From: Rhina ancylostomus
Taxonomy: Eukaryota
Length of the DNA: 64,000 nt
Assembly (NCBI GenBank): GCA_030265395.1
Contig: JARFYF010000052.1
Span: 86,166,374-86,230,373, forward strand
Reading direction: 5' to 3'
A model generated the notes under the pieces. The model saw only the letters and a list, made by a program, of their open reading frames with translations, was not told the origin of the DNA and did no database searches. A program made the position numbers and the translations under genes. The first letter of the stretch is position 1. The number at the start of each line of letters is the position of its first letter. Positions 3,390 through 41,960 of this stretch are shown here, piece after piece.

Positions 3390-5680
3390 GAGCAGGATCA
3401 GACCACTTGACTCCCTGAGCCAGCTCCACCAACTGATATCACGGCTGAACTGATTGTGACCTCAGTTCCGCGCTTCCCTTTACCTGTGGTAATCTCAGTT
3501 CTCTTGGTTAGAGTATCTACCTACTACCTCAAAATATTTAAGGATTGTGCTTTCTTCACCATTTGAGGAAGAGACCACCAAAGATTCATGATTTTCTGTG
3601 GGGAAAGAAATTTGCCTCATCTGTCTTAAGTAGGTGACTCCTAGTTCTAGAATCTCCCAAGAGAGGAAACATCCTCCAACATCTTGCCAAGCCCCCAGTT
3701 TTGATGACATTGCTGCTCATTCTTCTAAATTCCAGTGGATACAAACCTAGCTTGTTGATCCTTTCCTAACGGTGACACTGACTGTTTAAGAAGTGACTGA
3801 TAAATTTTCTGACATGCTTTCCATTCATTAACATCCTTCCTTAAATAAGGTGGCCCAGATCCCTCTGCGTCTCAGAGCTCTACCATCTCTCATCATTTGG
3901 ATAATGTACTTTTTATTTTTATGCCAAAATGGACAATTTTATTTTTCCCACATTTTACTCACTTTGCCAGATTTTGGTCCTCCCACTTAAGCAGGCTGCA
4001 AAGTTACATCCCCTGAACAATCTTCCTATCTCTGTGTCATCAGCAAATGTTAGTGCTTTCATATTCCTTTCCCTCTCTCACACATAAAAGTTTGAGGCCC
4101 CGGCACTTACCCCTGTGGCACACCACTTAGTCATACTGCATGGAAACAAATCATTTGGCCCAACCCATCCATGCCAACCAAAATGCCTGTCTAAGCTTCC
4201 TAACCATGCCTTGTACATTCTCATCCAAATTGTTGATATTAGGTGACAAACAACAATGGGCCTATCGCAGACCCCTGAGGCACACTATTAATCACTGGCC
4301 TCCAGTCCAAAAAAATCAACCTTCCATCATCACACTTTGCTTCCTACCATCAAGCCAGTTCTGTATCCAGTCAGCTAGATATTCCTGGATCCCATGCAAT
4401 CTAACCTTCCAAAGCAACCTACCGTGCAAAACTGTACCAAAGGCCTTGCTGAAGTCCATAGACTACATCTACTGCACCTGCTGTCATTGAAGAAATAACC
4501 CCAAAAAGGTCAAAAAACTATTAAATTTGTGAGACGTGATCTTCCCTTGCACAAAACAGTGCTATCAACCTGTCTTTCCAAATGCATGGATATCTTATCC
4601 CTCAGAATCCCCTTCAACAACTTAACTACCACAGAGGTTCGGCTTGCTGGTCTATAGTTCCCAGGTTTTACTTTGCAGCCCATAAAGGCACAACATTAGC
4701 TATCATCCAGTCATTCAGCACCTCACCATTGCTAGCAATGATTCTTGTATCTCAGCCATGGCACCTGCAATTTCTTCTCTAGCTTCCCAGTGTGCTTGGA
4801 TTTATCTACCTTCATACACTTTAAGATGTCCAGCACCTTCTCTAATGTGGACTACCCTTGTGACGTTCACATTAACTTTCCCAAGTTCCCTAGTTTTCAT
4901 GTCTCTCTCCACCATAAAAACATAGAAATGCTCATTGAGGATCTCACCCTTCCGCTGCAGCTCCACACATAGATGTCCACTTTGGTCTTTGAAAGGCCCA
5001 ATTCTCTCCCGAGTTACTCTTTTTCCTTTAATATACTTATATCTGTTGCATATTGCCATCCAGAAAAGGGCCTATTTATGCTTCTGTTTCCAGTGAGCCA
5101 ACCAAGTCTTCTATCCACACTAATATGTTGCCTCTTGTACCATGAATTTTTACTTTCTCCAACAACCTTTGCAGCAATTTATCAAATACCTTCTGGAATT
5201 CTTAGTCCATTCACTGGTTCCCTTTATCCGCAGCATATGTTATTTTTTCCAAAGAACTTTAATACATTGATCCTGAACATGATTTCCCTTTTTAGAAAAC
5301 CCTGCTTGCTTTGTATAATTACCTTCAATTTTTTTAAGTGCCCTTCAATAATATTTTTAATAATAGCTTCTAGCATTTTCCCTATTACAGATAAGCTTAC
5401 TGTGCTTTCTTTGTCTTCCTTTTTGATAAACAAATTGTATTTGCTGTTGTCCAATCTAATGGAATCTTCCCCTAACCTAGGGAATTTTTGAAAATTAAAA
5501 CCAAAACATCATTTACCTTACCAGCCACATCTCTTAAGATCCTAAGATCAAGTCCATCAGGACCCAAAGACTGTTAGCTCAGAACTCCAACAGTTTGCTA
5601 AACACCACTGCCCTGGTGATTGTAATCTTCCTGGCTTCCTCCTCCTTTTCAAATTCCAGGAGTACAACTATTTCTGAGGT
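3390..5680 (-). mobile_element. Nested decayed CR1/L2-type LINE fragments (PAQR3 intron 3)
   Basis: Minus-strand RT-like remnants, e.g. 5224-5454 (SLSVIGKMLEAIIK...SKQGFLK), broken by stops and frameshifts. Bounds approximate. Confidence 0.7.
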
Positions 5681-5998
5681 TACGTGCATGCTTACAGGAG
5701 AGTCTTGCCTCTTCTAAAATTTGCTTCATCTGGACATGGGAAGAGGCCACTTTAATAAGAGTAAATCATCTTTGTTAAAGACAAATGAACCACGTATGAA
5801 AACTGTACTTCTGTACCAGATCGCTTAACTGGGTACCAAAACCTTATCTATACTTCCAGAAATGCTATGAACACTGATATTGTTCAATTATCAGTGTTTC
5901 ACAATTAATTGAATTATTAACCTCTGTTTGTAGCAGTTCTCCTAAGCATGAACCTGTTTGTAGAGTTACTATGTTGCACTTTTGTCTTCTGTGCTTAG

Positions 5999-8599: not shown

Positions 8600-10010
8600 A
8601 GTGTGTCCTTTGTACTTAGGTGGATGAATTTATAGTGGGGGAATGGAACATCTTTGTCTTCACAGAATGCATTTCAGAAGTTCTAGAGAACTGAGGGTGT
8701 ATGAGAATGAGGAAAAGAAGTAAATAGGTGTACTGACAAAATAGTACAAGATAAATTTAAGACTAAAAGCTGATGAGCTATATCAAGAATTTGNNNNNNN
8801 NNNNNNNNNNNNNNNNNNNNNNNNNNNNNNNNNNNNNNNNNNNNNNNNNNNNNNNNNNNNNNNNNNNNNNNNNNNNNNNNNNNNNNNNNNNNNTTTGAAA
8901 TAGATTTCTATAGTGATAGTGAATGCCTTGATCTTTTTTCTGAATTCTGTAGATTCTGGAATTGTTCTTGTGGGGTGGCGGGGAGGGGTGGGAAGCAGGA
9001 AAAGAGAATTTCAAGTTCTCCATCCTGGAGATCTGTGGAAGCTGATTCAGAGTTCATTCAAAACATTGCAGATGTTCAAGTATTAAGTTTATCAAGGGAT
9101 ATGGGGATAGTGCAGGAAACTGGCAGAGGTAGCACTTGCAGCATATTTTTTCATGTCATTTTTGGTTCTTTTGCCAATTACTTTAATTCTATGCCCCCTT
9201 GCTCTTGACTCTTGCATCAGTGAGAACAATTTCTACCCAATCTACCTCTAAATCTGTGCACCCCTTCCAAACCCTTTCTGTTCTAAGTGTGACACCCAGA
9301 TGTGAACACAATATTTCAGTTATGGTCAAAGTGTTTCAGAATATTCCACGTCTCCATCTGGCTTAACCACTTCCAACTATTTTTGCATCAATGTGTCTCT
9401 TGTACCTTTTTAGAGTTGTGCCTTCATTTTATTGTTTGTTCTCATTCATCATACAAGATTTAACATTTCACATTTCATATTTATCAACATATTTAATTTT
9501 CCACATTCACCCATTCCACCAGATTACTGCCATCTCTTTGAAGTCCATTATTATTCTCTTCACAGTTCACCCTACCTCCTAAATTTTGTCATCTGCATAT
9601 TTGGAAACTATACCCTCTATATTCAAATCATTCATGTAAAGAAAAGCATGTCCTAACACTAACCCCTAGAGAATTCCACTGTATACTTGCCTCTTGTATG
9701 AAACAGAACTTTTCACTACTACTATTATTGTTTCCTGTTACTTGGGTCAATTTTCTATCCATGCCATTACATTCAGTGGGTATATCATGTCCTGGTTTAA
9801 CTTCCCAAAATGCATCACTTCACATTTGCCTGAGTTGAATTCCAGTTGCCTTTCCCAGTTGATTGATTGAGATACTATAATAACTTTAGACAACCACCTT
9901 CACTCCACCAATTTTGGTGTTATCTGCAAACTTATTAATAATGCTATCTACATGGTCATTCCAAATCATTAATATATATGACTAAGAACAGGGGATCCAG
10001 CAACAATCCA
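8600..10010. mobile_element. Decayed CR1-type fragments in both orientations (PAQR3 intron 5)
   Basis: RT-like remnants such as 'cccaaaatgcatcacttcacattt' and 'ttatctgcaaa', the reverse complements of KCEVMHFG and FAD motifs. Bounds approximate. Confidence 0.55.
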
Positions 10011-13455: not shown

Positions 13456-14852
13456 CTATTGTTTGGAAGGAAATGGTGCTGCACCAAATGGATCAAAATC
13501 ACCATGTTGATGTGCACTGTGTAAAACTAGTTCAGTAAAGGGCACTGCACCANNNNNNNNNNNNNNNNNNNNNNNNNNNNNNNNNNNNNNACCATGTACA
13601 GAACTAGGTCTGGATCTGTTAGTAACAGGATTGTGGTCTCCTCGATCACTTAGACCTTGGTACTGAGAGTTTCTGGCAAGGTCTTGTGGATGGAATGGCT
13701 TGGCACCAAATGGGTCAAGCAGGCTTTCATCAGCAGCCAATAAATGGCATTGCTCCTTTCCATCTGTAAGTGCCACACCAATATTCTCCTTAGAATCAGA
13801 TGTATTCAAGAGTTCGTTGCTACTTTGTGAATCACGCCTCCCTACTTTTTTGTGCCTGCGTACTCGCTCTGGAGTTCTATAATTAGGTTTGGAAGGTTTT
13901 CTTGCAGTTGTTGGTGTGCCATGGTGGCGTTTTCCATTTCCACCAGAAGATTCCTGTTTGGTGCGACGTTGTCGAGAAGAAAGTTTCTGTAAACTGCGCT
14001 GCTTCAATCTGTGTTGCTGACAAGCTGTGATCTCCTCAAAAGGAACATGTCCAAAAGCATCCTCTTTGCTTTCCTCTCTATGCTGAGCAGGCTGAAGTGG
14101 CTGGAATGGAGTGGAGCCAAACATGTCCACATCATTAGGCGAAATAGGTGGTGTTTGTGTGAGAGTACCTTCAACATAGTAAACTGGATGAGGTAATTTT
14201 CTGGTAAAAGGTGCATTACTAAATACATCAAACTCTTCCTGCTCCTTAAGAGCAATTGTTTTGAAGGGTGCCTTTTGAATACTATCTTTATTCTCCATTC
14301 TTTTGTCAAGTTGCATATGCTGCTGCAAACCAACAAATGGCACAGCACCAAACATATCTACTTCATCTTGAGTTTTGACTCCTTTGATTCGAGGTGAATC
14401 TGGAGGGGTGATGAGTGCTGTTGCGGACTCTACACTTGCAATACTTTCACCATCAGCATTGTATTCTGAACCTTGTTCTGTTACAGATCTTTCTTTATTC
14501 TGATCAAAATCAGAATCAGAGCTATGCTTTTCGTCCTCACCCACTTCTTCATCTTCATCAGATTCCATTAGCAGAGGCCTCTGCCCAAACGTTTCTGCTT
14601 CTACATCATTGAACTCTCCATGTTCACTGTGGAACTCATCCTCCTCTTGTTCTTCCTCTTCACTGCTCTGAGGAGTAGGTGGGTCAGACTCAAAATCACT
14701 GTCTGAGTCTTCTCCATTTTTTTTGTTCTGCAAGATATTTGGATCATTTTTTTCTTTGCTCTGGTCACTGAGTGGAAGAATATGTCCTTGTGTTTTAGCT
14801 TTAAATGCACAGTCTGAATTTTCCACATTTTCTTCACTTCTTGCATTTGATC
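13456..14852 (-). CDS. BMP2K: BMP2K terminal exon 16 (long-isoform acidic/DPF-rich C-terminal tail)
   Basis: Acceptor ttccttag| at 14853-14854, phase 1. The ORF includes SDFESDPP, RPLLMESD, QRSLQKLSSRQRR, RHKKVGRRDSQSSNE and the terminal DPFGAAPFPSKQ*, all typical of BMP2K. A 38-N gap (13553-13590) preserves the frame. Confidence 0.95.
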
Positions 14853-16479
14853 CTAAGGAAAAATAATATTTATACCATAACTAAATTGTTAAAAGACAAA
14901 TATTTAGGAAAACAAACGATAATATGTTAAGCTAATGTTCTTAATGCTTTGAAACACAGCTGAGCAGAAATCCAACTCAACTGATAAGAACAAGTTCTGA
15001 GTGCTAGCAATAAGGATCTAATTCAAAATTAGTTTGAATCCAGTTTCTAGCAGCAAATGTGAGCAACGATCTTTCTTAAAGACTTAAAGACCAAGAATAG
15101 TTGCTTCCAGTTGTACACAAGAGGTATTCTTGTATCACTCAAATTCAAGAATGTTGCTGGGTTCTAAGCATGCAATGATTTGAAACTGGGTTCTCCAAGT
15201 AGAGGTCTTCCACCTCTCAAGTACAATATTCACAAAAAAATTCTCAACACAAGCATCAGAAAGTATGAATCAAGTTTTTTTCTCAAGTCCAACAGCTAGA
15301 GTACAGTGAAAGGACAGAGGTCAAGATATCAGACAGTAATTCAGAGGCATTTTCAAATCCCACCATAAAAGTGGAATACAATTCAGAGAAATTAAATCAA
15401 AGACTTGGTAATGGTGACCATAAATCTACAGAAATGTTGCAAGATTCCTTGTTCATTAATGTCTCTCAGGAAACGAAAGGACATGTGCTGTAATTACCCA
15501 CTCCTATTTGTGATGTGGTCTCCAGTCAATCAACAGTGACCTAATTACTCAATGAACTAGCTTCACAAGCCCTTCAGTTGTATATCTGACACACTAAAGA
15601 ACAAAACCAGACAGACCACCCAGCATTCACTAATGTATCAAGTCCAGTTGATTCACAAACCTCTGAGCTCTGGTTACTAGGAGTGCTGCCCCAGTCTGGT
15701 CAAGCAAAATCAGATGGTGGGCAATTGAGGGGCTCCTCCACCATCAGGAGCCCATGCAATCTACTACCCTATTGTTAAGGGGGAAGAAGAAAAAAAAATC
15801 ACTTAACAGGATTGAAAAGGCATTTCCTACAAGATGGAGTGCATAGGGGAAGGAAGTGCAGAGGCAAGAGGGAGAGGGGTATCTGGTAAAGGGAAGGGGA
15901 TCAAAGAGCAAGTTAATATTGGAGGTTATGGCTGAGGGATGCACTGAAGGAAAGGAGATTCAGGGATGGGGAGGCTTGAAAGGTCAAGGGGAGGGAGAGT
16001 AGGGAAAGCCAGATGGCTGCAATGGACAAGGCCATCTGTACCCCAGTCTCTGTGTGCACATTTACTGACTGATGCCTACACGTATGTTAATATCTATGCT
16101 GCAGAGCCTAGTCTCCAACCCTTGTGGAGGATCTTACCACATGTTCTTGCTTCGTCAAACTCATGGCAGCTGGTGTGAAAATTCCTACCCACATTGAGAA
16201 GTGACATATAAGCAACCACCACTCCTTAAATGCAAAGTTTAGGAACTGTAATCTCAGAACCCTCACAAGCATCAACAGAAGACCTGAACGTTGCTCTGCT
16301 ATCACAGTATGGGAATTTAGATACCTACTGCCTTGGCTTGTGTGCTGCCATTTGCCTGTTGTCTCAAGCGCGGCAGTGATGCTATTGTCAAAATGACAAT
16401 GTTCTGGAAAAAAAAACAAACCATATCAGAAACCCTGGCTTCATAGAACGTCCCCCCCACCACCGTCAAGAATGAGCTA

Positions 16480-17500
16480 ATTCAATGTCCGCTCTGTGGA
16501 ACAGGAATGATTCCTATTTCTCCAAACCATGCAGAACCAGCATGGTTTTGGTCATCAGCAAACATACTCCAACCCTGGAAGCTTCAGATGAGTCCAGAGA
16601 TCTTTGAACAAATCTTGGTCTAAGTCTCAGGGTGATGAACAACTTCAATGCCAGGGTTGGGAAACACCAATTACTACTTTCCAAAGAACTGTTTAAACAG
16701 TAGGGAAGCTAACGCCAATAGAATCATTCTGATAACAAAATGCCTGCAGCATAGTCTTGTTCTAGAGAGAAAAAGCACAAGACCTCATGGCAACACTCCT
16801 AATTCAAGAGCTCTGTCATCAACTTGTTGTCTGGACCACATGAGAGAATGAGCTTTACATATAACATCCATAAAACCAAAAGGCACACTATCTACCTGTC
16901 TCCACTGTTCAATGCCACATCCTCACAATAAAGGTCTGCAATGAGACTTGGAAAAATGCAGACCATTTCCCCTACCTTTAAGCTGCCTCTCAATGAAGGC
17001 AGGCACTATAGAAATTCACTATTGCCATTAGTGTTCCATGAGGTTTTTTGAAGATCAAGACTTCGAACTCAGCAAAATGCATATCGTCCACTGAGTTGCA
17101 GTGGTCATTGCCCTGCAAAACACTTTTGAAACAGCAGGCACCTCAATGTACTTGAGGTACCAGCAAAGCTGTCTCCACAAATTCCTTCACATCTCCTAGT
17201 GGGATAAGTGAACTAACGTCAGCATTCTCATACAAGCCAAGATCCTTTAAATTCTCAATTACGATGGGTAGGCCATCATTTGCATACCCAGGGCCAGACT
17301 CCAGAAACAGATACTCCAACTTCTGTCACAGTAAAGAATTACCAGGTGGAGAAGGGGTGATTCACAGATATTCCTTAAACCTCCTTGAACATGTGTAATA
17401 TCCCTCCAAGTGGGAATGTGTCATAACCACTCAAAGATGATAAAAAACCATTCAGGATGGAATTGAGGAGTATTTGCCAGAGTACACAGAAGTTCAGCAT
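16480..17500 (+). mobile_element. Highly decayed RTE-clade LINE
   Basis: Remnants of YxPTLxAxDE and FNARVG (endonuclease) and QxCLxKxLxIxW.DK.TN.S (RTE C-terminal region). Confidence 0.55.
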
Positions 17501-19199
17501 AAACACAGAAGGAAACCACTGTCTCCCCCCACCCCATCATGCACCTCCTATCCCAACTGTAGCAGAATCCAGCCGAAGAACTGGAAGTCAACCCACAGAC
17601 TGAGCAAGAAATATTTAACAGACCACCTGGCAAATGACTTGAAAACCGTATCTGTATACCATCCTATCCCATCAGCAGGTTGTATACACCAGGAATGGCC
17701 ACGGAGTATATGGCAGTGAAATGCCCTGTGAGACAGCTCATGGACAAGGAGATCACCTCTTGCTAACATCCTTCCTCAGCTAATGTGCCTCCATGTTGAA
17801 AGATGTTTGAAAACATCAAAAGTAGCAAGAGCAATGATTTTACTCTGTGTGGACTTCACATATATCAAAAGCATCTTAATAGCTCTATGACTGCTGGGCT
17901 GTTGAATCCTTATATCTGCCAGACTAGTTCTTCAACAGTTGTGAGAAAATCAAAAAGGGACAAGCCAACCTAGCTGCATCCTCACCAACCTACTTGCTAC
18001 AAATTTATCTATCCTTAATATTGGCAGCGAACAAGGTTTTGTCTTCACACAGAGGACACCCTATGTCAGATAATGTGGCACTACCATTTTGCCAAATAGG
18101 ATACACTCAGAACAGAGCTGGTAGCTTAAAAGTGGAGATTCATGAGGCAGTGTGAGCCATCAGCAAAAGTAGAAATACATTTCACCACAATCTGCAACCT
18201 CATGACCCAATGTACTATTAGAAATAGGCCTTGGGATTAAAACTGATTTAATGAGTGTAGGATATGCCAGAACCAGCATCAGCCATTTCTGAAAGTTAGG
18301 TACCATCCTGCTGAAGGAGCAAGGACAACATACATGCTAAGCAGCAAAACAGTATGCAATAAACAAAGCAAAGCAGTCACAGAAATGACAAAGTCAAAGT
18401 TCTGCAGTCTAGTTACATCTATTGTGAATAGTGACAAACAGGAGGTTGCCCCAAGAACATACCCACTCTCCACAATATTGAGACCTAGTGCTTGCCAATG
18501 CCAGAGACAAGGCTAGGGCACTTGCAATCACAGTTAGCCACAAAGAGGTAACTGAATGATCCACCTTTACTTTCTCCTGAGATCCCCAAACCTGGCGTGA
18601 CAGAAGCTAATTTTCAGCCAATTCTATTCACTTCACATAATATCGAGAATCAGGCGAGAACACAGGATACAGCACAGGCTACAAGATCAGCCAATATTTC
18701 ATCTGTAGCACTAAAGGCTATAATACTGAAAACAGAAAATACTAGAAATGCTCAGCAGGTCATACATTATCTGTGGAGATTAAGTTAACATCGGGTCAAT
18801 GAGCTATTCCATCTGTAGGGTCATTGATCTGAATCACTAAACTACACATACACTGCCAAATCTAACTGTTTCCTAAATTCTCCCATTTGATATCTATGGT
18901 ACTTTGTTCAAACAAAATAGTTGTGATTATGACAGAAGAGTCTCAGAAGAGGTAGTTAGGATATGGGATACATCTAAAAGCTGCATAACATTCTCAATCT
19001 TCTCCAAATCACAGACCAATGTGAACACATTCAGCTTCCACAGGAGGGGTAAACTTGGAACATGGGCTTGGAAGCAAAAGAGCCTGAAGCAGAATAGAAC
19101 AAATTCCACATCAGCTAGAACAAGTAAAAGGCCAGAGAGCCATAGAAACAGACCATTCCACCCAAGTCTCCACCAAAATCAAGCACTCATATACATTAA

Positions 19200-19420
19200 T
19201 CTCATTCTCCCCACATTCCAATCAGCTGCCCTCCTCCACAAGATTCTACAACACACCCTCATACTAGAGGCAATTTACAGTGGTGAACTGACCTACTAAT
19301 TCACACACCTTTGGAACTTGGGAGGAAACTGAAGCACGCAGAGGAAACCACACAGTCACAATGAGAATGTGCAAACTCCATACAGCATTGGTGATCAGGA
19401 TTAAACCTGTGTCACTCAGT
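19200..19420 (-). mobile_element. V-SINE fragment
   Basis: Reverse complement of the V-domain: GGAGTTTGCACATTCTC...GTGGTTTCCTCTGCGTGCTTCAGTTTCCTCCCA. Confidence 0.7.
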
Positions 19421-19763
19421 ATCTAAATAAGATAAAAGCAGGGGATAGAGAACAGCATGCTAATATGCAAACTAGCCTTTCATTTCTAGGACTCAGATTT
19501 AAATCCAGTCCAGATTTATTAGACCAGATATTCTCCTCTACAAGGTAACTTCAAGATGCTACATAAAGTGATTCAACAGTTTATCAGTGGACCAACACAT
19601 CTATGCTATACCACTTATATGTCATTAAAACTAACAGAATAGCTAGTAAGAAAATCAAAATCATCAGAACTTGCAGGAAATCAGGAATAAGTATTTAAAT
19701 GAGGTTTTAAGGGCTGCTAGCATCTGTGGAATTCAGAACCCATGGCATGCATTTAAAGTGAGA

Positions 19764-20332
19764 CCATAGAGAACAGAGAAACTACAGCACTGTTCAGGCC
19801 TTCGGCCCACAAAACTGTGCTGATCATGTCCCTACTCTAGAAATTACTAGGCTTACCCATAGCCCTGTTTTAACTCAGCTCCGTGTATCTATACAACAGT
19901 CTCTTAAAAGACCCTATCATATCCACCTCCACCACCATTGCTGGCAGCCCATTCCACGCACTCACCACTGAGTAAAAAACTTACCCCTGACATCTCCTCT
20001 ATATCTACTCCCCAGCACCTTAAACCTGTGCCCTCTTGTGGCCACCATTTCAGCCCTGGGGAAAAGCCTCTGACTATCTACCCGATCAATACCTCTCATC
20101 ATCTTATACACCTCTATCAGGTCCCCCCTCATCCTCCGTCGCTCCAAGGAGAAAAGGGCGAGTTCCCTCAACCTGTTTTCATAAGGCATGCTCCGCATTC
20201 CGGGCAGTGTCCTCGTAAATCTCCTCTGCACCCTCTCTATGGCTTCCACATCACTCCTGTAGTGAGGTGACCAGAACTGAGCACAATACTCCAAGTGGGG
20301 TCTGACCAGGGACCTATACAGCTGCAGCATTA
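19764..20332 (-). mobile_element. Young CR1-type LINE, 3' end (ORF2 C-terminus and 3'UTR)
   Basis: Uninterrupted ORF 19962-20330 (LYRSLVRPHLEYCAQFWSPH...IERVQRRFTR...LERRRMRGDLIEVYK), followed by a short simple-repeat tail. Confidence 0.92.
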
Positions 20333-20791
20333 TTTGAGAAAAGCGGCAGCATCCTAAACACTCGCCCCCTTCGCCGTGTCTGCACTGTCTGCAGGCTGTG
20401 CCATCTACAGTGGTCCACCAAGGCTACTTTCCAGTCCTGTGATCTGTTACCAAGAGGGATGAGGGCAGCAGGTGCATGGGAATACCACCAATTATAGAAT
20501 CCCTTTGAACTCGCAACATCCTTGAAATATATCTCATTCCTTCATCGTCACCAGGTATAAACCCTAGAACTCGCTGACAGTGCTGGGAGAGCACCTTAAT
20601 CCGATAGACTGGCAGTTCAAGAAGGCAATCACTATCTCCCCATTAAAAGAAACTACAGGTGGTCAATGCCCTCACCCTGCACATTGCAGAACATGTGGAG
20701 TAAACAATGTCTGTTGGGTGACTTATTCAGAATATTGCCTTTTAAATTACTTGATCTTTAATCTGAGGCATGCAAACAATTTGCCTTGCAG

Positions 20792-20942
20792 TGAATTGGA
20801 TGCTCCATTTGCAAAGTGGAGCAAAGACCAAGTGTGCAACTGGCTAGATGACCAAGGACTAGGTATATACGTGGGGGCTTCAGGATCCTGGATCACATCA
20901 GGCCAGGCTTTACTGCACGCATCTCAGCAGGACCTGGACAGG
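20792..20942 (+). other. Orphan liprin-beta (PPFIBP1-like) SAM1 coding exon, displaced into BMP2K intron 15
   Basis: ttgccttgcag| ... AGG|GTAAGT, 151 nt, no stops. Encodes ELDAPFAKWSKDQVCNWLDDQGLGIYVGASGSWITSGQALLHASQQDLDR, which closely resembles the liprin-beta-1 first SAM domain as I recall it (DLDMPFAKWTKEQVCNWL..QGLG.Y......WI.SGQTLLQASQQDLEK). No other liprin exons were seen in the window. Confidence 0.85.
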
Positions 20943-21450
20943 GTAAGTTTCTAGCTGCTTGCATTTTTAAAGTGCCTTTGAAATAAGAAAATATCACAAT
21001 GTGCTTCACAGAAATGCAATTCGACACAAAATTGACACCAAAGGAAATAGAGATGGTTGACTGTTGAAGACATTAATGAGGAGAGAGGTGGGGAGGTGTA
21101 GGGAAGAAATGCCAGAGTACAGGGATGGCTGAAGGCACCGCTGCTAATAGTGGAGCAAAAAAATTAGACACAACCTGTCCCTAAGAGAATGAGACTTCCT
21201 CAGCAACAGAGAGTGTGTTACAATGAACTGGTCTGGAAGTAGAATAGAGGATGAACTTGGGTGAGTTTTGGCCTTTACCTGTTTCTACATTGCCGTGGAT
21301 CAGGTTCTTGCTTCAGGTTCCACCCACCACTGTGACTTGAGCACAGAGGTCCAAGCTAATGCTTCAGCATTACTGAGGGACTACAACAGTACTGACGGAG
21401 TGCTGCACCATTTGGAAGTAGTGAATGAGGCATTAAACTTGGCACTATCA

Positions 21451-21578
21451 TTAGCTTGAAGCGATCATTAAGGAAGAAATAGCAAGACACCTGGAATGAA
21501 GTGGTTCCATCAGGCAGATGCAGCATGGATTCAGGAAGGGCAGGTCCTGTTTGACAAACTTATTGGAGTTCTTTGAGG
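21451..21578 (+). mobile_element. CR1 reverse-transcriptase fragment, opposite orientation, ending at an assembly gap
   Basis: Encodes QHGFRKGRSCLTNLLEFFE, a motif of the CR1 RT domain. Confidence 0.85.
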
Positions 21579-21678
21579 NNNNNNNNNNNNNNNNNNNNNN
21601 NNNNNNNNNNNNNNNNNNNNNNNNNNNNNNNNNNNNNNNNNNNNNNNNNNNNNNNNNNNNNNNNNNNNNNNNNNNNNN

Positions 21679-22390
21679 ATCCCCCATCACAACAACTCTG
21701 TTATTCTCACACCTTTCTAGGATCTGCTTCCCTATCTGCTCCTCAATATCCCTGTCACTATTGGGCAGCCTAAAAAAAACACCCAGTAAAGTTATCAACC
21801 CCTTCCTGTTCCTAACCTCCACCCACAGAGATTCTGAAGACAGTCCCTCCACAACATCCACCTTTTCCGCAGCCGTGACACTATCTCTAGTCAACACTGC
21901 CACTCCCCCACCTCTTTTGCCTCCCTCCCTGTCCCTTCTGAAACATCCAAAACCCCACACCTGAAGCAACCATTCCAGTCCCAGAGCCACTCAAGGCTCC
22001 ATAATGGCTACATCATAGCTCCAAAATATCAATCCAAGCTCTAAGCTCATCCGCGTTGTTCACAATACTCCTTGCGTTAACATAGACACATCTCTAGTTT
22101 ATCTGAGCATATCCCTTCTCTATCACCTGCCTATCATACTTACTACTAGCTTTCTCTATTTGAGAGCCAAACACCACTTCCCCAGTCTCTTCAGTTCTGA
22201 TTCCACCCCAACAATTCTAGTTTAAACTCTCCCCAGTAGCCTTAGCAAACCTCCCTGACAGAATGTTGAGCCCCCAGGATTCAAATGCAACCCGTCCTCT
22301 TTGAACAAGTCATACCTGCCCCAAGAGAGACCCCAATGGTCCAGAAAACTGAATCCTTGCTCCTTACTCCAATCCCTCAGCCACTCAGAG
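21679..22390 (-). mobile_element. CR1 LINE 5' part: end of ORF1 (SGNH esterase) and ORF2 APE endonuclease
   Basis: Encodes WLRDWSKEQGFSFLDHW...DGLHLN (SGNH) and FRRDREGGKRGGGVA...SESLWVE...LGVFFRLPNS...VVMGD (endonuclease). AAGTGAGA flanks the composite element at 19756-19763 and 22391-22398. Confidence 0.9.
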
Positions 22391-23907
22391 AAGTGAGAGA
22401 TGTTCTGTATGAGAGATGTTCTCTGCATATATTAAAATGACCTAGAATTGCTTGTTTTCAGCATTTGGTGCTAAAATGGGAAAAGTTACTTTCTTTTCTA
22501 TAGTCAGTGCAGTTTTGTTTAATAGAGGAAACGTCTATAAAGAATGACAGTATCTATTAGATAGGTGTGAGTTTTCCCAAGCTGAGAAGTTAGAGCAAAG
22601 GGATAATTGTTTAATGGGAAACCATCATAGCCACAGAAAATGGTTTAATGATTTCCAGTTAATTCTCTTGGTCTGACTACTCCATAATGTTACACAATTA
22701 GAAAGGGCTAAAATGTTCAAGGCTCACATTACTATTGATCCAAGACCTATATTTTAAAACAAAAGCCAAAATATATAAATTGATGCACCATTCCTTCAAG
22801 GCAAATTTATATGCTCATTACAAATCTTGTCACTGTAACAAAAATGCATCATGTTAAATTTGAAAAAATATTTCCAATAGAAATCCCATAAATCAGAATT
22901 ACAAACATCTTTTTTTGGCATCAACCCATACCCAGCAAGCTGGCAATGATTTATAAAGAAAAAATTGGATGCTGAAGCACTATTGTTACCCCCCCCCCCC
23001 CCCCAAAGAACCAACACACAAAGCACTGGAAGAACTCAGCAGGTCAGACAGCATCTACGAAGGGAAATTGACAGTTGATGTTTTGGGCTAAGACCCTTCT
23101 TCAGAACTGGAAAAAAAAGAGGGGAGATAGCCTGTATAAAAGGGTGGGGGAGGGGGTGGAGTGAGAGCTGGCCGCTTTTTAAAGGACAATTTATGTTTCT
23201 AAACCAAACAAGGCTTGAAATTATTAATCCACTTGATAACATTTCGAAAAAATAAATCTGCATAAATCACCAAGAAATATGGATTTTTAACTTTTGTTAT
23301 GTACAAAGGATTATTACAAATTGCAATCAGTTTTGAAAACCTCTCCAAATAGTGGGACACAAAAACATATTTAATCACATATGATCCAAATCTTTTAAAA
23401 AATTCTTTTTTTGATGTTCTTTTTCCAGACAACAGATTAAAGCTGATGAATGTCTTGTAACTTGTAATTACATGTCCTGCACTGATGTATCAGTACAAAT
23501 ATTCAGGCAAGGAACTTTGTAGCTTTATCTGAATTTGAAACTTGCATTGTTAAACTAAAGCTATTTGACGCACAAGTGTTTTTTTTTTAAAATGAGGTTT
23601 CTTATGAAGCAAGTTCCTCATGAAGCAAGTTCCTCTCAGTCTGTTGTTGTACTATTTCATAGAGGCTGCAGCTAACTTAATATAAAATTTCAAAGTTGAG
23701 GTGGGAAAGGAGTGGATTAAGCACAATCTGGCCCCATAAAATCTAAACTAGTCTTAAGAATAAACTGTTTTCCCAAGAAAAATACACCATTCCAGAAACA
23801 CGATTCAGAGTGACTTCAACTTCTAAAAACCTATTTCTTCTAATAGCAATTTAGCTTTCCACCTCAAAATTCTTGTCAATGTTCATCTGCAAGTCAGTAT
23901 CTTTGAG

Positions 23908-23969
23908 ATTTATATTTTGTACCACACAGGGTGCCAAATGCATTCTGTTGTGTGGTACAAAATATAAAT
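23908..23969. repeat. Perfect 21-bp inverted repeat (hairpin)
   Basis: ATTTATATTTTGTACCACACA (23908-23928) is the exact reverse complement of 23949-23969. Confidence 0.9.
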
Positions 23970-25465
23970 TTGTATGGTGCATTGTAGAAGCTAACACTGG
24001 TATTATTTCCAACTGCTACAAAGTCTGTTGTATTGAGTTGGGGTGATTTATTTGAACAAAGCTATTTAATGTCAAATTTTAAGAATGAAATTCTTTGCCT
24101 ATTTCCTAATTTAAGCACTCTTTCCTGGTGTTAACTTGCTGTGCATCTTGTGTGAAAGACCATCCAGCCTGTTATAGGATACGTAACTAAAGCATTGCTT
24201 TAAAAATGAGCATCTCTGAAGTCATTTGGTTTTCAAGTTACAATGATAAATCTGCCCAAAACTAAAAGTGAAATAGGACTGTATACGAGGAATGAAGTGA
24301 ATCTTGAGGAAAAGTAATTATTGGTGCCTGGTTTCTCAGACTTGATGCACAACTGTACTACTGCAGTAACAATCAAAGGAAGATACACACTGGTATCATT
24401 CTGAGAATCTACCACTCCCTCGACCTTCCTAACACCTTATTGATATCATCCTCAAGGGATGAATGTTAATTTTTCATTTTGGAAACCTGTATCAACTTAC
24501 CATGAATGCTGACTAGACCAAATACAAGGTGCCTTGCATCATTGCACTAGAAATTAATAGATCATGTTAAGAGCCATTTTAAGACTAAATTTGGGGATGG
24601 GTGAGGGAGAAGACAATGCTGGTTGACAATTCATTGTTGTACTTATAAAGAGATCTACCATGGGAAGATCCATCAGCTAGTCATATAAAAGGAGGGTGAA
24701 AACCAAATTGGAAGGATTCAAGAGTTAATGTTACAAAATCACTGAAAGCAATGATTTTGTTTTAACTTTAAAANNNAAAGGTAGCTCACACAAATATTTA
24801 AATTGGTGAATGACAAGGCTCTAAATCATTTAATGGTAAACCCCAAACTGGAAATTGGCACCTACCACATAGGGAAATACTAGAGTTGAACTAGAACCCC
24901 TGCTGGACTGGTAGATATTAAAAACAAACGTTATTATTTTTGAACCCAAACTTGCTCAAGGCATTCCTTTATGTTGAATGCTCCATAAACTTATATTAAA
25001 ATATTTCCAAATCCTGCAAAGTACCAATACTAGAAAAAAAACTTCATTTATAAATAAAAACAGCCAAATAAATGCTAACAACCAGAGATACAAGTAACTT
25101 TGTTAACAATGAGGAAAAATACATACTCTAAAAAGGTATACTTCAAAGACACTGGCCATGACATTGTTCTACTGCCCAATAAATCAAAGCAAATCCCAAA
25201 TGCAGAGACTAAGAATTATTAATTACAGCAGCTGATAATATACCAAGGTCCATATGACTTACTGGCATTTACACCCATAACTGGGTTATCCCAAATGGAG
25301 ACCAGCATTGGGCATATCAGTGAGCAAATCCATGTGGATATCTGTGGAATCTGAAAGAGCTGTGCAAAAAGTTGTAGGTTCCCAGATCTTAGACTAGGAA
25401 ACTTCCAGAAAGCAAAATAAAATTAGAAGAGTCCATTCTAGTCTTTAGAGGGATGGGAAACTAAC

Positions 25466-29064: not shown

Positions 29065-29175
29065 ACGTTGGCGCCAGAAGCATGGTGACACTTGCGGGCT
29101 GCCCCCAGAACACTATGCAAAAGATGTATTTCACTGTGTGTTTTGATGTACCCGTGACTCATAAGATATCTTTAT
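29065..29175 (+). mobile_element. 3' tail fragment of the same SINE family as 47197-47495
   Basis: Shares GGCTGCCCCCAGAACAC..CAAAAGATG..TTCACTGTGT..TTTGATGTAC..GTGACT.ATAA.GATATC with 47414-47488. Confidence 0.75.
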
Positions 29176-32100
29176 ACATTACAAGATGCTCCCCAAAATA
29201 GGAGAAGGAACGGGCATAGAATAGAAGCTGGAAAAATCAAAAATGTGAAAGACTTGAAATAAGTACTTTGACAAAATCAAAACGTGGCTTTAGGTAAATA
29301 AACTCTCCAGGAATACGATTACAGATGGATTTGCCAAACCTGGTGGTGCATTGAGCGAACATAAAGCTGGGGAAGGGCAAAAAGGCACAAAAGGTCATAT
29401 CATCATGAACACTGCATTGAAATGCCATTCATAAAGCTTCTGAACCCTCTTGAACACATTCACCAGCCCATTTCCTTACTGCATTCCAAACTAGAACTCA
29501 GTTGAACTCTGCTGACAAGCAGTTAATGAAGTGGACTAACGGATGCAGAAGACTCCAACCAGTGTGTTTTAGGAAACAGTAATGAAAGACACAATACCAT
29601 AAGATTCCTGGCAAAGGCTTCGTTTAAAAATTCACAAACCAAAAAACCTTCACTCTGCATGGATTCACCTAACCTGCTAAGTATTGTCAACATTTTCCAT
29701 TTCTATTATTAATTTGCTCACAGCTGGAATAGTGGATGCAATACAAGGGACACCATTACAGGAATACATTGGTTCATATTTTGCAATCAGCAAAAAAGAA
29801 CACTGCTCAGCATTCATCTTGATAAATGCTCGCAAAGTTTTAGCAAATGCTGCAGCACACTTCCCTCTCAGTTATCACTTTGATTTCGGCAGCCTGCATG
29901 GGAAATTTATGGCATCCGATAAGAATGAAGAATCCTGTCAGATGGCAATGTATGAAGTAAAATACAATCAAGTTAATTACAGAAATAGTAAAAGATTGGT
30001 ACATACAGTACTTGTAATTAAGGAAGAAATCAGGTAGGGAAATAAATTTAAAACATTACAATACAAATCTTAAAAATGATCTGCTACTTTATTTTCCTGA
30101 AAGAGTGTGACTCTACTCTTCTACAATTAATTTTTCAAGAAGCATTGTGTTTTGCAAATACTATAATTTGCTTTGTCATTAAAGTTACTCCCAACACAAC
30201 CATAAACAGGAATATCCAGCTCCAGATGCATGCTTTTAAATACAGAAGAATGGAAACTGCTGTCAGAGATATTCTGTTCCTCTACTGGCTGCTTTATTGC
30301 TGTCTACAGCAACAGAAGATGCAGAGCTCCCACCAATTACCCAATGTTAGAGCACTTCTTAAAAATTTAGTTCATGCGTTATAATAGCAATCACACCATT
30401 TAATGGCCATGGCAGAAGGTATATTGATGCAATTTTTGGCAAAGGTGGCGCATTTTTGGCACATGACTCAATGGNNNNNNNNNNNNNNNNNNNNNNNNNN
30501 NNNNNNNNNNNNNNNNNNNNNNNNNNNNNNNNNNNNNNNNNNNNNNNNNNNNNNNNNNNNNNNNNNNNNNCAAATTGGATTCCTATTCTCTTGACCCCAG
30601 TCCTACCTGATGGCAGAGGTAGTGCTGAAGAAGCCTTAATAACCGGTGGCTTACCTTGCAGATAATGCACATTGTAGTCATGCTGGAGTGAGTGAACATT
30701 TGAAATGGGAAATGAGGAACCAATCTTTTTTTTTCTGGATATTATCAAGCTACTTGAGGCATTTCTCATTCAGACATTATTCCATTACATTCCTGATTTG
30801 TGCTGGGGGGGGTTTAATATCTGAATTACTTGCTACAGAACTCCCAGCATTTTCTGATTTGTTCCTTTATTTAGGTGTGTACATGCATTTGAGGAAAAGA
30901 CCCAATGATGAAATATGTTTCTCCTCACCACCACAATCAGCCCTGACCAGCCCACAAGATGCAAATAGTGGAGGATGTGCCAGTAGTGAAAAGATTGAAT
31001 GTCACATGGAGGTGGTTAGATTTTTAGAGACAGTCTTTTTCTGGTACAGACTGTTTCATTGTCTGTAGACACAAGAGACTGCAGATGATGGAATCTGGAG
31101 GAACTCAGCACCTATGGAGGGAAATGGACAGTAGATGTTTTGGGTCGAGACCCTTCATCTGTACAGAGTTGCAAAATTAACTAAACACTGCGTTTTATCT
31201 TAGGATATATGGATCATTGATCAAGCAGAAAATGGTTGGGCCAACACTACCACCTGGAAGAACACCCACAGGAATATCCCAAGACAATTGATTGGTCTCA
31301 AGCAACCATCTACCTTGTGCTAGATTTGACTGTAGCCGGAGGAAGAGCTCCTCCCCACCAATTCTCAGAGCTGAATTTTCCTAAAATCCCCAACTTGGGG
31401 ATTGTTAAAGACAAAAACAAACCTAAAGCTTAATTTACATCTCAGTTTAGTGTAAAATTCTGACATTGGGTTTTTACAAACCTCAGTCATGAAAAATTGC
31501 TTTCCTGGATTGCAAACACAACACCCAGCTCTGGCCTATGAACACTTCATCCGAACCCTCCATTGACATCAAGAACTACAAGCAGGAAATTTCTTGCACC
31601 TAAGATCAATGATAGTAGCTTCAGTCCCAGTCACAAATTGCCCCCTAAATACCAACTCCATCCTTCGTTACAACTAAGGCTGAACTAAACACAGTTTAAG
31701 TGAGAGGAACTTCAATAAAATATTCATTCCATCCCGACTTACACTGCTCCATCCAAAATTCTGAAAAGCCATTCTATATAGGACCACATCCTTTTCATTC
31801 ACCTTTGTGCTTGCTGACTTGCATTGGTTTCTGATCTGTGAAACGTATTGTTTTAAAATTCTTTTTATAAAAACCACCATAGCGTTGCTGTGTCTCATTT
31901 CCATAACATCCTCCATTCCAGAATATTCTGTCCTGTTGCAAATCCTAGATTTTAAAATCACTCTATCCTTGATGGCCATACCTTCTGCTGCCCAAGAGCT
32001 CTCACACCAACATTAAGACATATCAAAATGCCTGTGATCAAGGTTCACCTGTTCAAATATCCACTGTTTACATTCTAATTTGTTAACGTTCCTGTGGAAT

Positions 32101-35982: not shown

Positions 35983-37924
35983 CTGTGAAGAAATTTATGC
36001 AAATGAATAGCAAGCTACCAAAAAAAACACAGGCTGCTAAATTTAAGCTACATCCAAAAACAGAGATTATTAAAACATATTCCCACAGGTATTAAAAATT
36101 CTCGATCTGCAACCTAACATGATATTTTTTCACTAAATTTTGGTGCAAAATGTCCAGAGATCAGAGATCATCGAAATTTGCTGTGCAGCCTTTACTCTAA
36201 CATGATTAGACAGACTTGGGGGGGGGGGNNNNNNNNNNNNNNNNNNNNNNNNNNNNNNNNNNNNNNNNNNNNNNNNNNNNNNNNNNNNNNNNNNNNNNNN
36301 NNNNNNNNNNNNNNNNNNNNNNNNNNNNTGATTAGACATACTTAGCCCCCCCCCCCCCCCACAAATAGGTTTTAAACTACAGGACAAACCCTTTCATGAC
36401 TGTCAATATGGTCAGCCATTCAGTATTTAATACAGAAAAGTCAATCATCCTTTCCATGTATTCAATTTTACTTTTAATAGCTAACATGCAAATAATTTGT
36501 AAAACTTACATGTGGTCACTAATGGCTTGGATATGAATTTGTAATATAGCTCTTCAAAAGGTGAATCCACAAATCAACCAGATCATCCAGGAGAGAATGC
36601 AACACGAGACAAAAAGTCTAAGGGATTTTGGCATAATAAAAACACCAAATAGGCCATCACAAAATAAACTATACTGTTCTGTACTCAAGAGCATACCAGT
36701 ATCTGATTATTAATTAGCTTCAGTTGTGAGGTGTAAAGAGAAAGATACTGCGCTCTCAAATGATGAAAATAATGTGGAAAGTTAGCAGTACAACAACAGA
36801 ATGCACCTATGTTTGAATCATCAAAATTTAGTACTCACATTTTCTTACTGGATTAATTTAACATTTTCTCTTCAAAAATATCAAAGGCTAAAAGAGCATA
36901 TAACATGCAAGGGCACAGATACATAACAAAGACTGAAGGAGATAATAGACAGGGTTATGAGGTATGTGATAGACAATTTAGCATCTCTGGGAAGAATTTC
37001 TTGGCAAGAAAGGGAGGGAGATGAAGAAACATGACTGTCTGGAATTGAGTATTTTTTAAATTAGGAGCCTTAAGGGAAACAAGAGCTTACTAGGCACCTA
37101 GATCAGATTCATTTGTCTATTAACATTATACCTTCATTTCTCACCTTTATCAAAATCAAATGCTTTAATGGGGGAAAATAAACCCAAGTATCTTAAGCAA
37201 CACAAAATGCTGGAGAAACTCAGCATTTCCAGCATCTGCACACTCATTTCTCCAAATATCTNNNNNNNNNNNNNNNNNNNNNNNNNNNNNNNNNNNNNNN
37301 NNNNNNNNNNNNNNNNNNNNNNNNNNNNNNNNNNNNNNNNNNNNNNNNNNNNNNNNNNNNNCTTAAAAATTATTTGCCCAAAAAAAATGCAAACTCTCAG
37401 CACTTTTGGCAGAAGTCTTCTGAAGCACTAGACATTAAGCTAGATACCAGATAAGCTCGCTTCTGGTCAGGATTCCATTGCAGCCTTCTGGGGTCAGATA
37501 TTCACTTACATCAAACACAGCCACCTTCCTGAGAAATGCCATTGCCTCACATCAGCAGTTCTAGCCTTCCTAGCCCACAGAGGGACCCAATAGGAGATAC
37601 ATCTAATGAGACCAGTATCTGCTTGTGTACAAATAGGGTTCCACAAAAACTGAAGGTTTTATATTCTTAGTGCAAATCTCCTACAAAGAAGATTAGTTAC
37701 AGTATACGTCTTACCTCTGCAGATATACTTTTCAGCAATTTCAGTGACCAGGGATCCTAGATGGAGCTTGGGCCCTCACCACTGCAAATCAAACTGGCAA
37801 GGTTCCACTTCTCCCAAAGATCATTCCCAGCAGGATCATTTCAATATTTATACTGGGAACTTCTGCCATGTGATTTTCACAGCTCATCTTCAAATCCCCA
37901 TTTTTAAAGATTTTTCTTGCCTAC

Positions 37925-38760
37925 ATTCAGGGGTATCTTGATCAGTTAGGGAAGTGGTCTGAGTAGCAGCAAATGGATTTCAATACAGTTAAGTGTGAGG
38001 TGATGCACTTTGGAAAGTCAAACCAGCGTAGGACTTATACTATGAATGGGAGGGCACTATGGAGTGTAGTGAAACAAAAGGGACCGAGAAGTACAAGTGC
38101 TTTGTGTGCTGAAAGCAGCATTACAGGTAGACAGGGTGGTGAAAAAGGCCTTTAGCATGCTAGCCTTCAGTCAGGACACTGAGCAGAGCATCTGGGACAT
38201 TACATTTCCACTGTACCAGTCACTTATGAGGCCACACTTGGAATACTGTGTACAGTTTTGGTCACCCTGTTAGAGGAAAGACAGTTAAACTGGAAAGTGA
38301 GAAANNNNNNNNNNNNNNNNNNNNNNNNNNNNNNNNNNNNNNNNNNNNNNNNNNNNNNNNNNNNNNNNNNNNNNNNNNNNNNNNNNNNNNNNNNNNNNNN
38401 NNNNNNNNNNNNNNNNNNNNNNNNNNNNNNNNNNNNNNNNNNNNNNNNNNNNNNNNNNNNNNNNNNNNNNNNNNNNNNNNNNNNNNNNNNNNNNNNNNNN
38501 NNNNNNNNNGACCCACAGGGCAACTTTTTTATGCAGAGGATGGTGAGTATATGGAATGAGCTGCCAGAGGAAGTGGTTGAGGCAGGGACAATAGTAACAT
38601 TTAAGCAGCATTTTGGTAGGTACATGGAGGGATGGGACGGGACTTAGAGGGATATGGGCCGATTACAGGAAATTGCCAACGAAGCAGGCACCGTGGTTGG
38701 CATGGACTCACTGGGCCAAGGGGCCTGTATCCGTGTTGTATTGCTCTATGACTCTAATGG
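37925..38760 (+). mobile_element. CR1 LINE 3' portion
   Basis: Encodes MDFNTVKCEVMHFGKSN, RPHLEYCVQFWSP and FFMQRMVSIWNELPEEVVEAG. Ends in a (CTATGA)-like tail and spans a gap. Confidence 0.85.
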
Positions 38761-40080: not shown

Positions 40081-40302
40081 GAGATTCTGCAGATGCTGGA
40101 ATCTGGAGCGCACACAAAATATGCTGGGAGGAATTCTGCAAGTCAGGCAACATCTATAGAGAGAAATAAACAGTCGATATTTTGGGTTGAGACCTTTCAC
40201 CAGGGCTGTCCTGGGGAAGGGTCTCAATCCAAAACGTCAACTGTTCATTTCTCTCCATAGATGCTGCCAGACCAGCTGAATTCCTCCAGCAGTTGTGTTG
40301 CA
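40081..40302. repeat. Foldback (inverted pair) of Penelope-associated pLTR-like repeat
   Basis: Arms at about 40111-40204 and 40210-40300 are imperfect reverse complements. The same family occurs at about 1220-1330, 23015-23110, 31070-31165 and 33745-33815. Confidence 0.7.
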
Positions 40303-41169: not shown

Positions 41170-41960
41170 TAGCACACTCTCTACAGATGCTCAGATTTAT
41201 AATCACTGATATGACATGAAATTTGTTGTTTTGCAGCAGCATAGTGCAAAGACATAGGAATATATAAATTACAAGAACTAAATGGTGCAAAGAAGAAGTA
41301 ATAATGAGGTAGTGTTCATGATTTCATGGATTGTTCAGAAATTTGGTGTGGAGGGGAAGAAGCTGTTCCTGGATCATTGAGTATGGGTCTTCAAGATCCT
41401 GTACCTTTCCCCTGATGGCAGTAATGAATAGAGGGCATTTCCTGGATGGTTGAGGGTCCTTAATGATGGATGCCAGCTTCTTGATGCACTGCCTCTTCAA
41501 GATGTCCTCGATGGTGGGGAGGGTTGTTCCTGTGATAAAGCAGACTGAGTCTACAACCCTCTGTAGCCTCTTGCAATCCTGTGCATTGGAGCCTCCAAAC
41601 AAGGCTGTGATACCAGTCAGAATGCTCTGCACTGTACATCTATAGGAATTTTCCAGAGTCTTTGGTAACGTACTAAATCTCCTCAAACTCCTAACAAAGT
41701 AGAGCCACCGCATGCCTCCTTTGTGACTGCAATGTTTGGGCCCAGGATAGATCGTAGGATATGTTGACGTCCAGGAACTGAAAGCTGCTCACGATTTCCA
41801 CCACTGACCCCTCAAATGAGGACTGGTGAGTGTTCTGACTTTCCCTTCCTGAAGTCCACAATCAATTCCTTGGTTGTGCTGACATTGAGTGCGAGGTTGT
41901 TGTTGTGACACCACTCAACCAGCCGATCTCTCTCACTCCTGTAAGTCTCCTCGTCACCAG
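41170..41960 (-). mobile_element. Rex1/Babar-type LINE 3' portion
   Basis: ORF 41324-41713 encodes RWLYFVRSLRRF...YRCTVQSILTGITA...DCKRLQRVVDS...LPTIEDI...SIIKDP, typical of the Rex/Babar post-RT region. Confidence 0.8.

Follow-up and report, generated by a model that had tools for sequence, protein, structure and literature searches.

Within the window, the 64,000-nt stretch of Rhina ancylostomus DNA analysed here, an exon of PPFIBP1 (liprin-beta-1) with part of each flanking intron was found inside an old CR1 LINE in the last intron of BMP2K, and it is tentatively read, with a rough probability of 0.42, as a real but dead duplicate captured by DNA-level repair into a CR1 copy already in place. 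A real dead duplicate is slightly more likely than an assembly error. The sequence-only reading of this locus had described an exon nested in a CR1 in the last BMP2K intron, and every part of that description was found where it had been placed. It had also set capture beside assembly mis-join; both options are kept here, and its view that an artefact is at least as likely holds insofar as the mis-join is a close rival, though no longer the favourite.

The BMP2K protein of Pristis was mapped onto the window using tblastn, placing exons at 25580-25464 and 14853-13459 and, in combination with splice-site reading, the host intron at 14853..25465 on the minus strand, bounded by a GT donor and an AG acceptor. 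The last BMP2K exon of the window matches Pristis at 98% and Narcine at 84%. A neighbouring exon, which we take to be PAQR3, gave no usable match in Pfam or Atlas, all Atlas matches being below 0.9 and bacterial or archaeal and therefore discarded. PPFIBP1 and BMP2K lie on different sequence records in 9/9 annotated rays, which rules out PPFIBP1 as a neighbour of BMP2K and bears out the earlier expectation that it does not belong at this locus.

The enclosing element, designated CR1-A, lies on the minus strand in two pieces. The 3' piece (19764..20333) encompasses the ORF2 C-terminus (20333-19885 by tblastn, corresponding to aa 798-948 of P0186), the 3' UTR and a short-repeat tail; the previous placement of this end at 19764-20332 was confirmed, except that homology reaches one base further, to 20333. 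The 5' piece (21679..22390) encompasses an esterase-like ORF1 tail (22383-22267), a spacer and the endonuclease (22093-21679). The ORF2 regions align with the full-length ORF2 proteins P0186, P0188 and P0192 in tblastn, the RT core being absent, and both the AP endonuclease and the RT/C-terminal region expected in ORF2 of the CR1 clade are represented. The endonuclease matched Exo_endo_phos (E 4.4e-4) and the ORF1 tail Lipase_GDSL_2 (E 0.082 over 39 aa), both under the Pfam cut-off. The 3' piece matches P0181/P0466/P0180 at 86-89% and the 5' piece P0463/P0313 at 73%; the two halves belong to one subfamily. As described earlier for a TSD-flanked, minus-strand CR1, the 8-nt target-site repeat AAGTGAGA stands at both ends, at 19756..19763 beside the CR1 3' end and at 22391..22398, 3-6 nt past the start of recognisable CR1 ORF1. 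There are 5 copies of AAGTGAGA on the plus strand of the whole window, and in 79/20,000 random draws the two CR1 ends shared a matching 8-mer. The true duplication may be shorter than 8 nt, as the left copy, read on the minus strand, opens with bases similar to those of the CR1 tail; TSDs of L2/CR1 elements are described as peaking at 3-5 nt (PMC4245944), and that of CR1-A is longer. The 3' end carries two degenerate short repeats and a hairpin with a fold z of -1.81 (11/200 shuffles equally good).

The earlier description of a young CR1 was not upheld, both halves being decayed: the 3' piece has a frameshift near 19968 and 5/90 invariant columns altered, and the 5' piece a stop, frameshifts and 9/64 altered (3' versus 5', p=0.09). 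With 14/154 columns altered overall (9%), CR1-A is, by its sequence, an old, decayed copy. Dating was restricted to protein columns because no DNA comparator of the family was found: a first pattern search for CR1 DNA in bacterial genome contigs gave 0 relatives among 100 matches, a second gave 14 distant loci among 90 matches (at most 57% identity, unused), and a plasmid search matched nothing. CpG observed/expected values (0.32 for the 3' piece, 0.20 for the 5' piece) did not tell young and old segments apart. The inner part of the 3' piece is less altered than the outer parts of the element (4/79 versus 10/75, p=0.065), and codons 60-122 of the 3' piece (20156-19968) form a 63-codon stretch without private changes, seen at the protein level only. 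The p-value for such a stretch in one old copy varies by model from 0.015 to 0.26 overall, being 0.015-0.067 over 152 codons (post hoc) and 0.08-0.26 for the inner piece considered alone.

Between the two pieces lies approximately 1.1 kb of foreign intron-exon-intron DNA with intron flanks of 458 nt and 636 nt. The upstream intron (20334..20791, plus strand) resembles nothing elsewhere in the window; its portion from 20334 to about 20680 is presumably an old LINE 3' remnant, for whose peptide Pfam returned nothing and Atlas no usable match. The downstream intron (20943..21454, plus strand) includes at 21281-21454 what we assume to be a SINE remnant; Rfam gave 0 matches in the window. It is followed, as previously noted, by an opposite-strand CR1 RT fragment and a 100-N gap. 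This fragment, CR1-B (21455..21578, plus strand), is 5'-truncated, contains one stop and runs into the gap; its RT match at 21455-21577 (tblastn) corresponds to aa 543-583 of P0186. CR1-B matches P0201 at 85% and P0463, the nearest relative of CR1-A, at 54%, so an inverted piece of CR1-A was ruled out on the ground of its different subfamily. The gap (21579..21678) conceals the right junction of the insert, and the sequence missing there would amount to 1,878 nt for CR1-A and 1,146 nt for CR1-B. A repeat search at the junction detected neither an inner TSD nor a long inverted repeat.

The exon itself (20792..20942, plus strand, 151 nt, phase 2-0) is bounded by AG..GTAAGT, is free of stops and encodes the first 50 aa of SAM1. 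The proposed liprin-beta-1 SAM1 identity is supported by concordant matches of the peptide to liprin-beta-1 in PDB 3TAD (E 1.7e-20), to Pfam SAM_1 (E 5e-8) and to ray liprin-beta-1b (90-94%). Its description as intact is apt for the open frame and canonical splice sites but not for the peptide, which is identical to Pristis and Narcine at 47/50 aa, these two showing no difference over the 50, and carries the substitutions D1E, T39A and E49D. The residues E1, A39 and D49 occur in 0/116 liprin-beta-1 sequences covering the exon, and mouse has D, T and E at these sites. When two whole liprin-beta-1 proteins were searched against the window by tblastn, this exon alone matched and no neighbouring PPFIBP1 exon was present. 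The exon is antisense to both CR1-A and BMP2K; on account of its orientation, exon shuffling into BMP2K was rejected and use of it there is unlikely, and blastp gave no match to a SAM exon in the BMP2K proteins compared. As a single copy on the opposite strand without neighbouring exons, it is probably inert, whether real or artefactual.

Drifting duplicate and working exon were compared by counting changes at columns invariant in 14 cartilaginous fishes. The ends of the BMP2K exons were trimmed manually on the basis of the tblastn mapping, and X positions were removed. The exon is altered at 3/42 such columns, all conservatively, versus 2/625 for the BMP2K of the window (Fisher p=0.0021), a difference that suggests, at the level of sequence comparison, a drifting duplicate rather than a working exon. 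Over all sites relative to Pristis the excess is non-significant (3/50 versus 22/1053, p=0.10). The exon's rate of change (7%) resembles the decay of CR1-A (9%, 14/154), while selection would make a pattern of three conservative changes 8-13 times more probable than drift would. With this taken into account, the net ratio favours a dead duplicate by approximately 2-13 fold if either of the two best-supported background rates is used, and drops below 1 at a background rate of 2%. These calculations, like that of the p-value over 152 codons, left out private residues adjoining another private residue. In working PPFIBP1, blocks with at least three private changes were found in 4/14 species, all on long branches. 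Base-calling error was set aside as an origin for the three substitutions, the BMP2K exons in the window being clean, though a low-coverage patch might still produce them.

In the preferred reading, repair capture, a 5'-truncated CR1-A landed in the last intron of BMP2K, flanked by a short target-site repeat, and has since decayed, as its sequence attests. CR1-A would later have broken in its middle and been repaired with DNA copied from the PPFIBP1 locus, which lies on another chromosome. In the simplest course, one broken end would have invaded a truncated CR1-A copy within a PPFIBP1 intron, copying would have continued across the intron, the exon and the next intron as far as CR1-B, and the product would have been end-joined to the half that holds the endonuclease; replacement would have cost about 1.9 kb of CR1 and the copied exon would have drifted afterwards, a step to which its private changes partly attest. 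DNA copying permits both retained introns and antisense orientation, and the lesser decay of the inner 3' piece is as expected of a younger donor copy. The window contains 17 gaps in 64 kb, 7/17 of exactly 100 N and four of 10 N, and the other 100-N gaps that could be sized proved short (a 16-nt overlap at 51841 and about 373 nt at 48581), which fits replacement better than simple insertion. The left junction is in mid-contig, with the gap 1.25 kb away, and the assembler got across the 710 nt that make up the other CR1-A half. There is precedent for gap-filling capture inside DNA transposons (PMC8277862) and for non-allelic repair between LINE copies (PMC7407515), and ectopic recombination between CR1 copies, proposed earlier, survives as part of this best explanation. 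Against repair capture count the bias of known single-copy captures towards the same chromosome (PMC8277862), since the donor here would be interchromosomal, and the right junction hidden in Ns. The intact splice sites and frame, with conservative changes only, likewise weigh against a dead duplicate.

A mis-join, nearly as credible, would have the contig enter the CR1 3' end at BMP2K, pass over to another copy of CR1-A that lies in a PPFIBP1 intron and is truncated at 20333, and continue for 1.25 kb until stopped by CR1-B. The assembly is fragmented and the contig terminates in a repeat; the mutated-clean-mutated order of the 3' piece and the stronger decay of the outer CR1 parts also agree with such a crossing, as does the exon with its open frame, perfect splice sites and conservative changes. 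The clean stretch of 63 codons, which under some of the models would be unlikely for one old copy, speaks against repair capture and would fit a switch between copies. However, the walk into the genuine liprin locus that was previously suggested predicts an orthologous peptide, and three invariant sites of the exon carry private changes; these would have to be lineage-specific changes in a working gene, on a lineage where BMP2K shows 2/625 (P 0.0003-0.006), or the donor would have to be a decayed duplicate elsewhere. Moreover, CR1-A is old, and old LINE copies are described for birds as assembling well from short or linked reads (PMC7757076). In one assembler an untouched run of 100 N denotes a read-pair-bridged gap (PMC5411770); under that convention, which may not apply here, the gap would independently support the right junction.

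RNA-mediated routes, taken together, are improbable. Most of their weight falls on composite retrotransposition, itself doubtful, in either of two versions. In one, an antisense CR1-A in a PPFIBP1 intron would read past its tail and over the exon as far as another truncated CR1-A; the tail of this second copy would prime reverse transcription of the unspliced antisense RNA, leaving one TSD around the whole; this accounts for the single TSD, the antisense orientation, the retained introns and the similar decay of exon and CR1-A (7% versus 9%). In the other, a sense pre-mRNA ending in CR1-B would have been mobilised by the CR1-B tail (5' transduction) into an older CR1-A, consistent with the shared orientation of CR1-B and exon. 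CR1 is described as requiring its own 3' hairpin and tail (PMC8665684, PMC4245944), so that host DNA would move only with such a tail. The versions need at least 2.3 kb and approximately 3 kb, respectively, within the gap, whereas the two sized 100-N gaps are below 400 nt, and under the first the 3' piece should show no less decay than the 5' piece, whereas the observed difference runs the other way (5/90 versus 9/64, p=0.09). A template switch during insertion, in which copying leaves the CR1 RNA for unspliced pre-mRNA of PPFIBP1 and then returns, is very improbable. Foreign DNA in place of the RT core inside one TSD pair recalls LTR-mediated chimeric retrocopies (PMC5131818); for bird SINEs, CR1 RT has been proposed to switch templates (PMC5729268). 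Strand argues against this route, also raised earlier: the exon is on the plus strand and CR1-A on the minus strand, so cDNA primed from the CR1 tail could not copy sense pre-mRNA, and an antisense RNA or DNA template or two inversions would be needed, 5' inversions being seen almost only with L1 in the account of PMC4245944.

Among known systems, repair capture at this locus resembles the single-copy Pack-TIRs formed by transposition-independent gap-filling (PMC8277862) in that host DNA with exon and intron portions sits, as a single copy, in an older transposon and would have been captured after its insertion. The container here is a CR1 LINE rather than a TIR DNA transposon, and the locus at most works like a Pack-TIR; the donor lies on another chromosome in relatives. 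Where breaks within LINEs are mended by end joining or by non-allelic recombination (PMC7407515), a mosaic LINE with foreign DNA at an internal break is predicted; such repair was described for mouse L1 in cells, whereas a ray CR1 is considered here from one sequence. Repeat-mediated mis-joins in short-read assemblies likewise present foreign unique DNA entered via a repeat and ending at a gap, but would predict orthologous exon sequence. In LTR-mediated chimeric retrocopies and CR1 template-switch chimeras host gene sequence also replaces the element's interior (PMC5131818, PMC5729268); these are described as copying sense RNA, usually intronless, unlike the antisense piece with both intron flanks found here. 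The ray PPFIBP1 SAM1 exon shares the canonical splice sites and 47/50 aa, and differs by the three private changes, the missing neighbouring exons and the location on the BMP2K chromosome.

If artefactual, the locus flags a mis-join that may have taken a conserved exon out of the PPFIBP1 model, and the private-substitution test offers a cheap means of separating capture from artefact. It is a long shot that ray CR1 moves unspliced host exons as composite elements, from an antisense intronic CR1 to the tail of a second within one TSD pair; if true, exons would have a general route of dispersal through a LINE regarded as too tail-specific for retrocopies, and the locus would be one of many 'Pack-CR1' copies. 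The copy, antisense to its host gene and seemingly dead, is of interest as a marker of mechanism rather than of function. CR1-group elements are reported to make up 22-34% of elasmobranch genomes (PMC13343379). Repair capture, if real, would provide a vertebrate LINE carrying an intron-flanked exon from another chromosome, and would show that in the genomes of sharks and rays duplicated pieces of genes can land in old CR1 copies.

The structure examined lies within the last intron (14853-25465) of BMP2K, which is encoded on the minus strand. It begins with an 8-nt repeat, AAGTGAGA (19756-19763), followed by the 3' piece of a minus-strand CR1 LINE, CR1-A (19764-20333), and foreign DNA from 20334, with a PPFIBP1 (liprin-beta-1) exon (20792-20942) and a fragment of a second element, CR1-B (21455-21578), both on the plus strand. 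After 100 N, the endonuclease and ORF1 tail of CR1-A (21679-22390, minus strand) ends directly before the right copy of AAGTGAGA. The repeat was reproduced by 79 of 20,000 random draws, and the anatomy proposed in the sequence-only reading, a TSD-bracketed CR1 with a foreign exon inside it, was confirmed. A 13-nt direct repeat of 16-nt period (22394-22422) overlaps the right TSD copy and may be a local slip or a templated duplication at the insertion site. The closest relatives of the CR1-A halves were the CR1 protein records P0463 (73%) and P0181 (86%). These two records look like separate parts of a single element, since their contigs are equally long and a third record, P0210, overlaps both. 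CR1-A ORF2 sequence of approximately 1,878 nt is absent between the halves. CR1-B was assigned to a subfamily other than that of CR1-A by its similarity to the record P0201 (85%, versus 54% to P0463).

The exon encodes the first 50 residues of liprin-beta-1 SAM1 (3TAD, E 1.7e-20; SAM_1 match), and the exon search gave 59 hits among 64 candidates, with all 44 named ones being chondrichthyan liprin-beta-1, in agreement with the identity first proposed. No further PPFIBP1 exon was found within the window. PPFIBP1 and BMP2K lie on sequence records that differ in length in 9/9 annotated rays and skates, so the exon piece is foreign at this locus, as had been suspected. The exon is most likely inert, because it is antisense to BMP2K, has no partner exons and encodes an incomplete SAM domain; none of the BMP2K proteins examined contains it.

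In its last BMP2K exon the source ray shares 98% identity with Pristis pectinata, 90% with Mobula hypostoma and 84% with Narcine, which places it near Pristis. Over the 50 residues no difference separates Pristis from Narcine, yet the window departs from both at D1E, T39A and E49D; of 119 sequences examined, 116 cover the exon, and E1, A39 and D49 occurred in none of these (mouse has D, T and E). Using the same 14 species for PPFIBP1 and BMP2K, invariant columns were altered at 3/42 in the exon versus 2/625 in the window's BMP2K (p=0.0021), and the rates of private changes of the two genes were alike in most other species (0.88% each in Pristis). Across all sites the excess was without significance (3/50 versus 22/1053, p=0.10), and in working PPFIBP1 some 42-column block carries at least three private changes in 4/14 species, all long-branch. 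The three substitutions are all conservative, a pattern 8-13 times likelier under selection when 157 functional changes were set against simulated drift. Their count favours drift by 109 at the window's own rate, 26 at the Pristis rate and 3.4 at a 2% rate, yielding a net ratio for a dead copy of about 2-13 at the first two rates and below 1 at the third. The private substitutions were taken as real but modest evidence for a dead exon copy.

CR1-A, previously described as young, is old: it contains one stop and several frameshifts, and invariant columns are altered at 9/64 (endonuclease) and 5/90 (3' piece). Within the 3' piece, codons 60-122 (20156-19968) show zero private changes, with mutated parts on both sides (p 0.015-0.067 under a uniform copy, in a post hoc test; p 0.08-0.26 within the inner piece only). 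Altered invariant columns number 10/75 in the outer parts of CR1-A versus 4/79 in the inner piece (p=0.065), which hints that its tail and junction sides derive from different copies. Additional CR1 fragments, likewise decayed and of other subfamilies, are present at 4196-5753, 9588-10009, 37925-38632, 48305-49069, 52042-54761 and 60102-60526, two of them split by gaps with collinear halves. CR1-type ORF2 was also encountered in records labelled as bacterial or within short contigs from archaeal and bacterial assemblies (P0182, P0186 and the DNA loci L001-L014), probably as animal contamination. Two short interspersed repeat families (78-83% identity; 19290-19408, 29067-29170 and 47251-47487; 23026-23107, 31106-31159 and 40208-40289) are probably SINEs. 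The 154-codon open stretch at 41327-41788 (minus strand), which we take to resemble a Rex1-type LINE C-terminus, gave one weak unrelated match only in Pfam, and an open exon at 442-627, presumably the PAQR3 N-terminus, received no confirmation from Pfam or Atlas.

The assembly of the window is fragmented, being interrupted by N runs at 17 places; 7 of these measure exactly 100 N and 4 exactly 10 N. Some gaps are sized exactly, since the 38-N gap within the last BMP2K exon (13553-13590) matches 13 missing codons with the reading frame preserved. The 100-N gap at 51841-51940, with flanks overlapping by 16 nt exactly, is a false gap with duplicated ends, as is the similar one at 36229-36328, with near-duplicate flanks containing G and C runs.

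The composite was judged real rather than artefactual with a probability of about 0.6. Its simplest real route, tentatively preferred at a little short of even odds, is DNA repair, in which a break inside the old CR1-A would have been mended by copying DNA of the PPFIBP1 locus. The sequence shows the anatomy, the subfamilies, the orientation and the decay; we infer the donor structure, the order of events and the right junction. An assembly mis-join via CR1 would also bring together tail and junction sides from different copies, and such a mosaic would arise equally from ectopic repair off a younger copy. By the convention of some pipelines, 100 N stands for a join whose size is unknown, so that the run here is not proof of linkage. 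In one assembler (PMC5411770), 100 N denotes a gap bridged by read pairs; were this to hold here, the insert would be tied to CR1-A on the right side too, against a mis-join, which is a close rival at somewhat less than even odds and not the favourite, having earlier been rated at least as likely. The two other 100-N gaps of estimable size are both short (a 16-nt overlap; about 373 nt), and a short gap means that the CR1 middle was replaced, which makes a composite or 5' transduction by CR1, needing 2.3-3 kb inside the gap, unlikely.

A cDNA primed at the CR1 tail extends along the plus strand, on which the exon is sense, and the template must therefore have been antisense RNA or DNA. The suggested template switch onto unspliced RNA fails on this orientation: with the exon antisense to CR1-A, PPFIBP1 pre-mRNA is unfit as a template, and 5' inversions have been observed almost exclusively with L1 (PMC4245944), leaving a sense switch highly improbable. 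The observation of the sequence-only reading thus stands, and its interpretation in part.

Retrogenes are reportedly scarce in birds, as Suh is said to have noted in 2015. No report on this locus or on CR1-internal exon capture in rays was found among the titles and abstract openings of a largely open-access literature. Capture into CR1-A by repair would resemble the gap-filling capture that occurs in DNA transposons (PMC8277862) and the non-allelic repair that happens between LINE copies (PMC7407515). The event would be of a known kind in a new host element, represented by a single copy.
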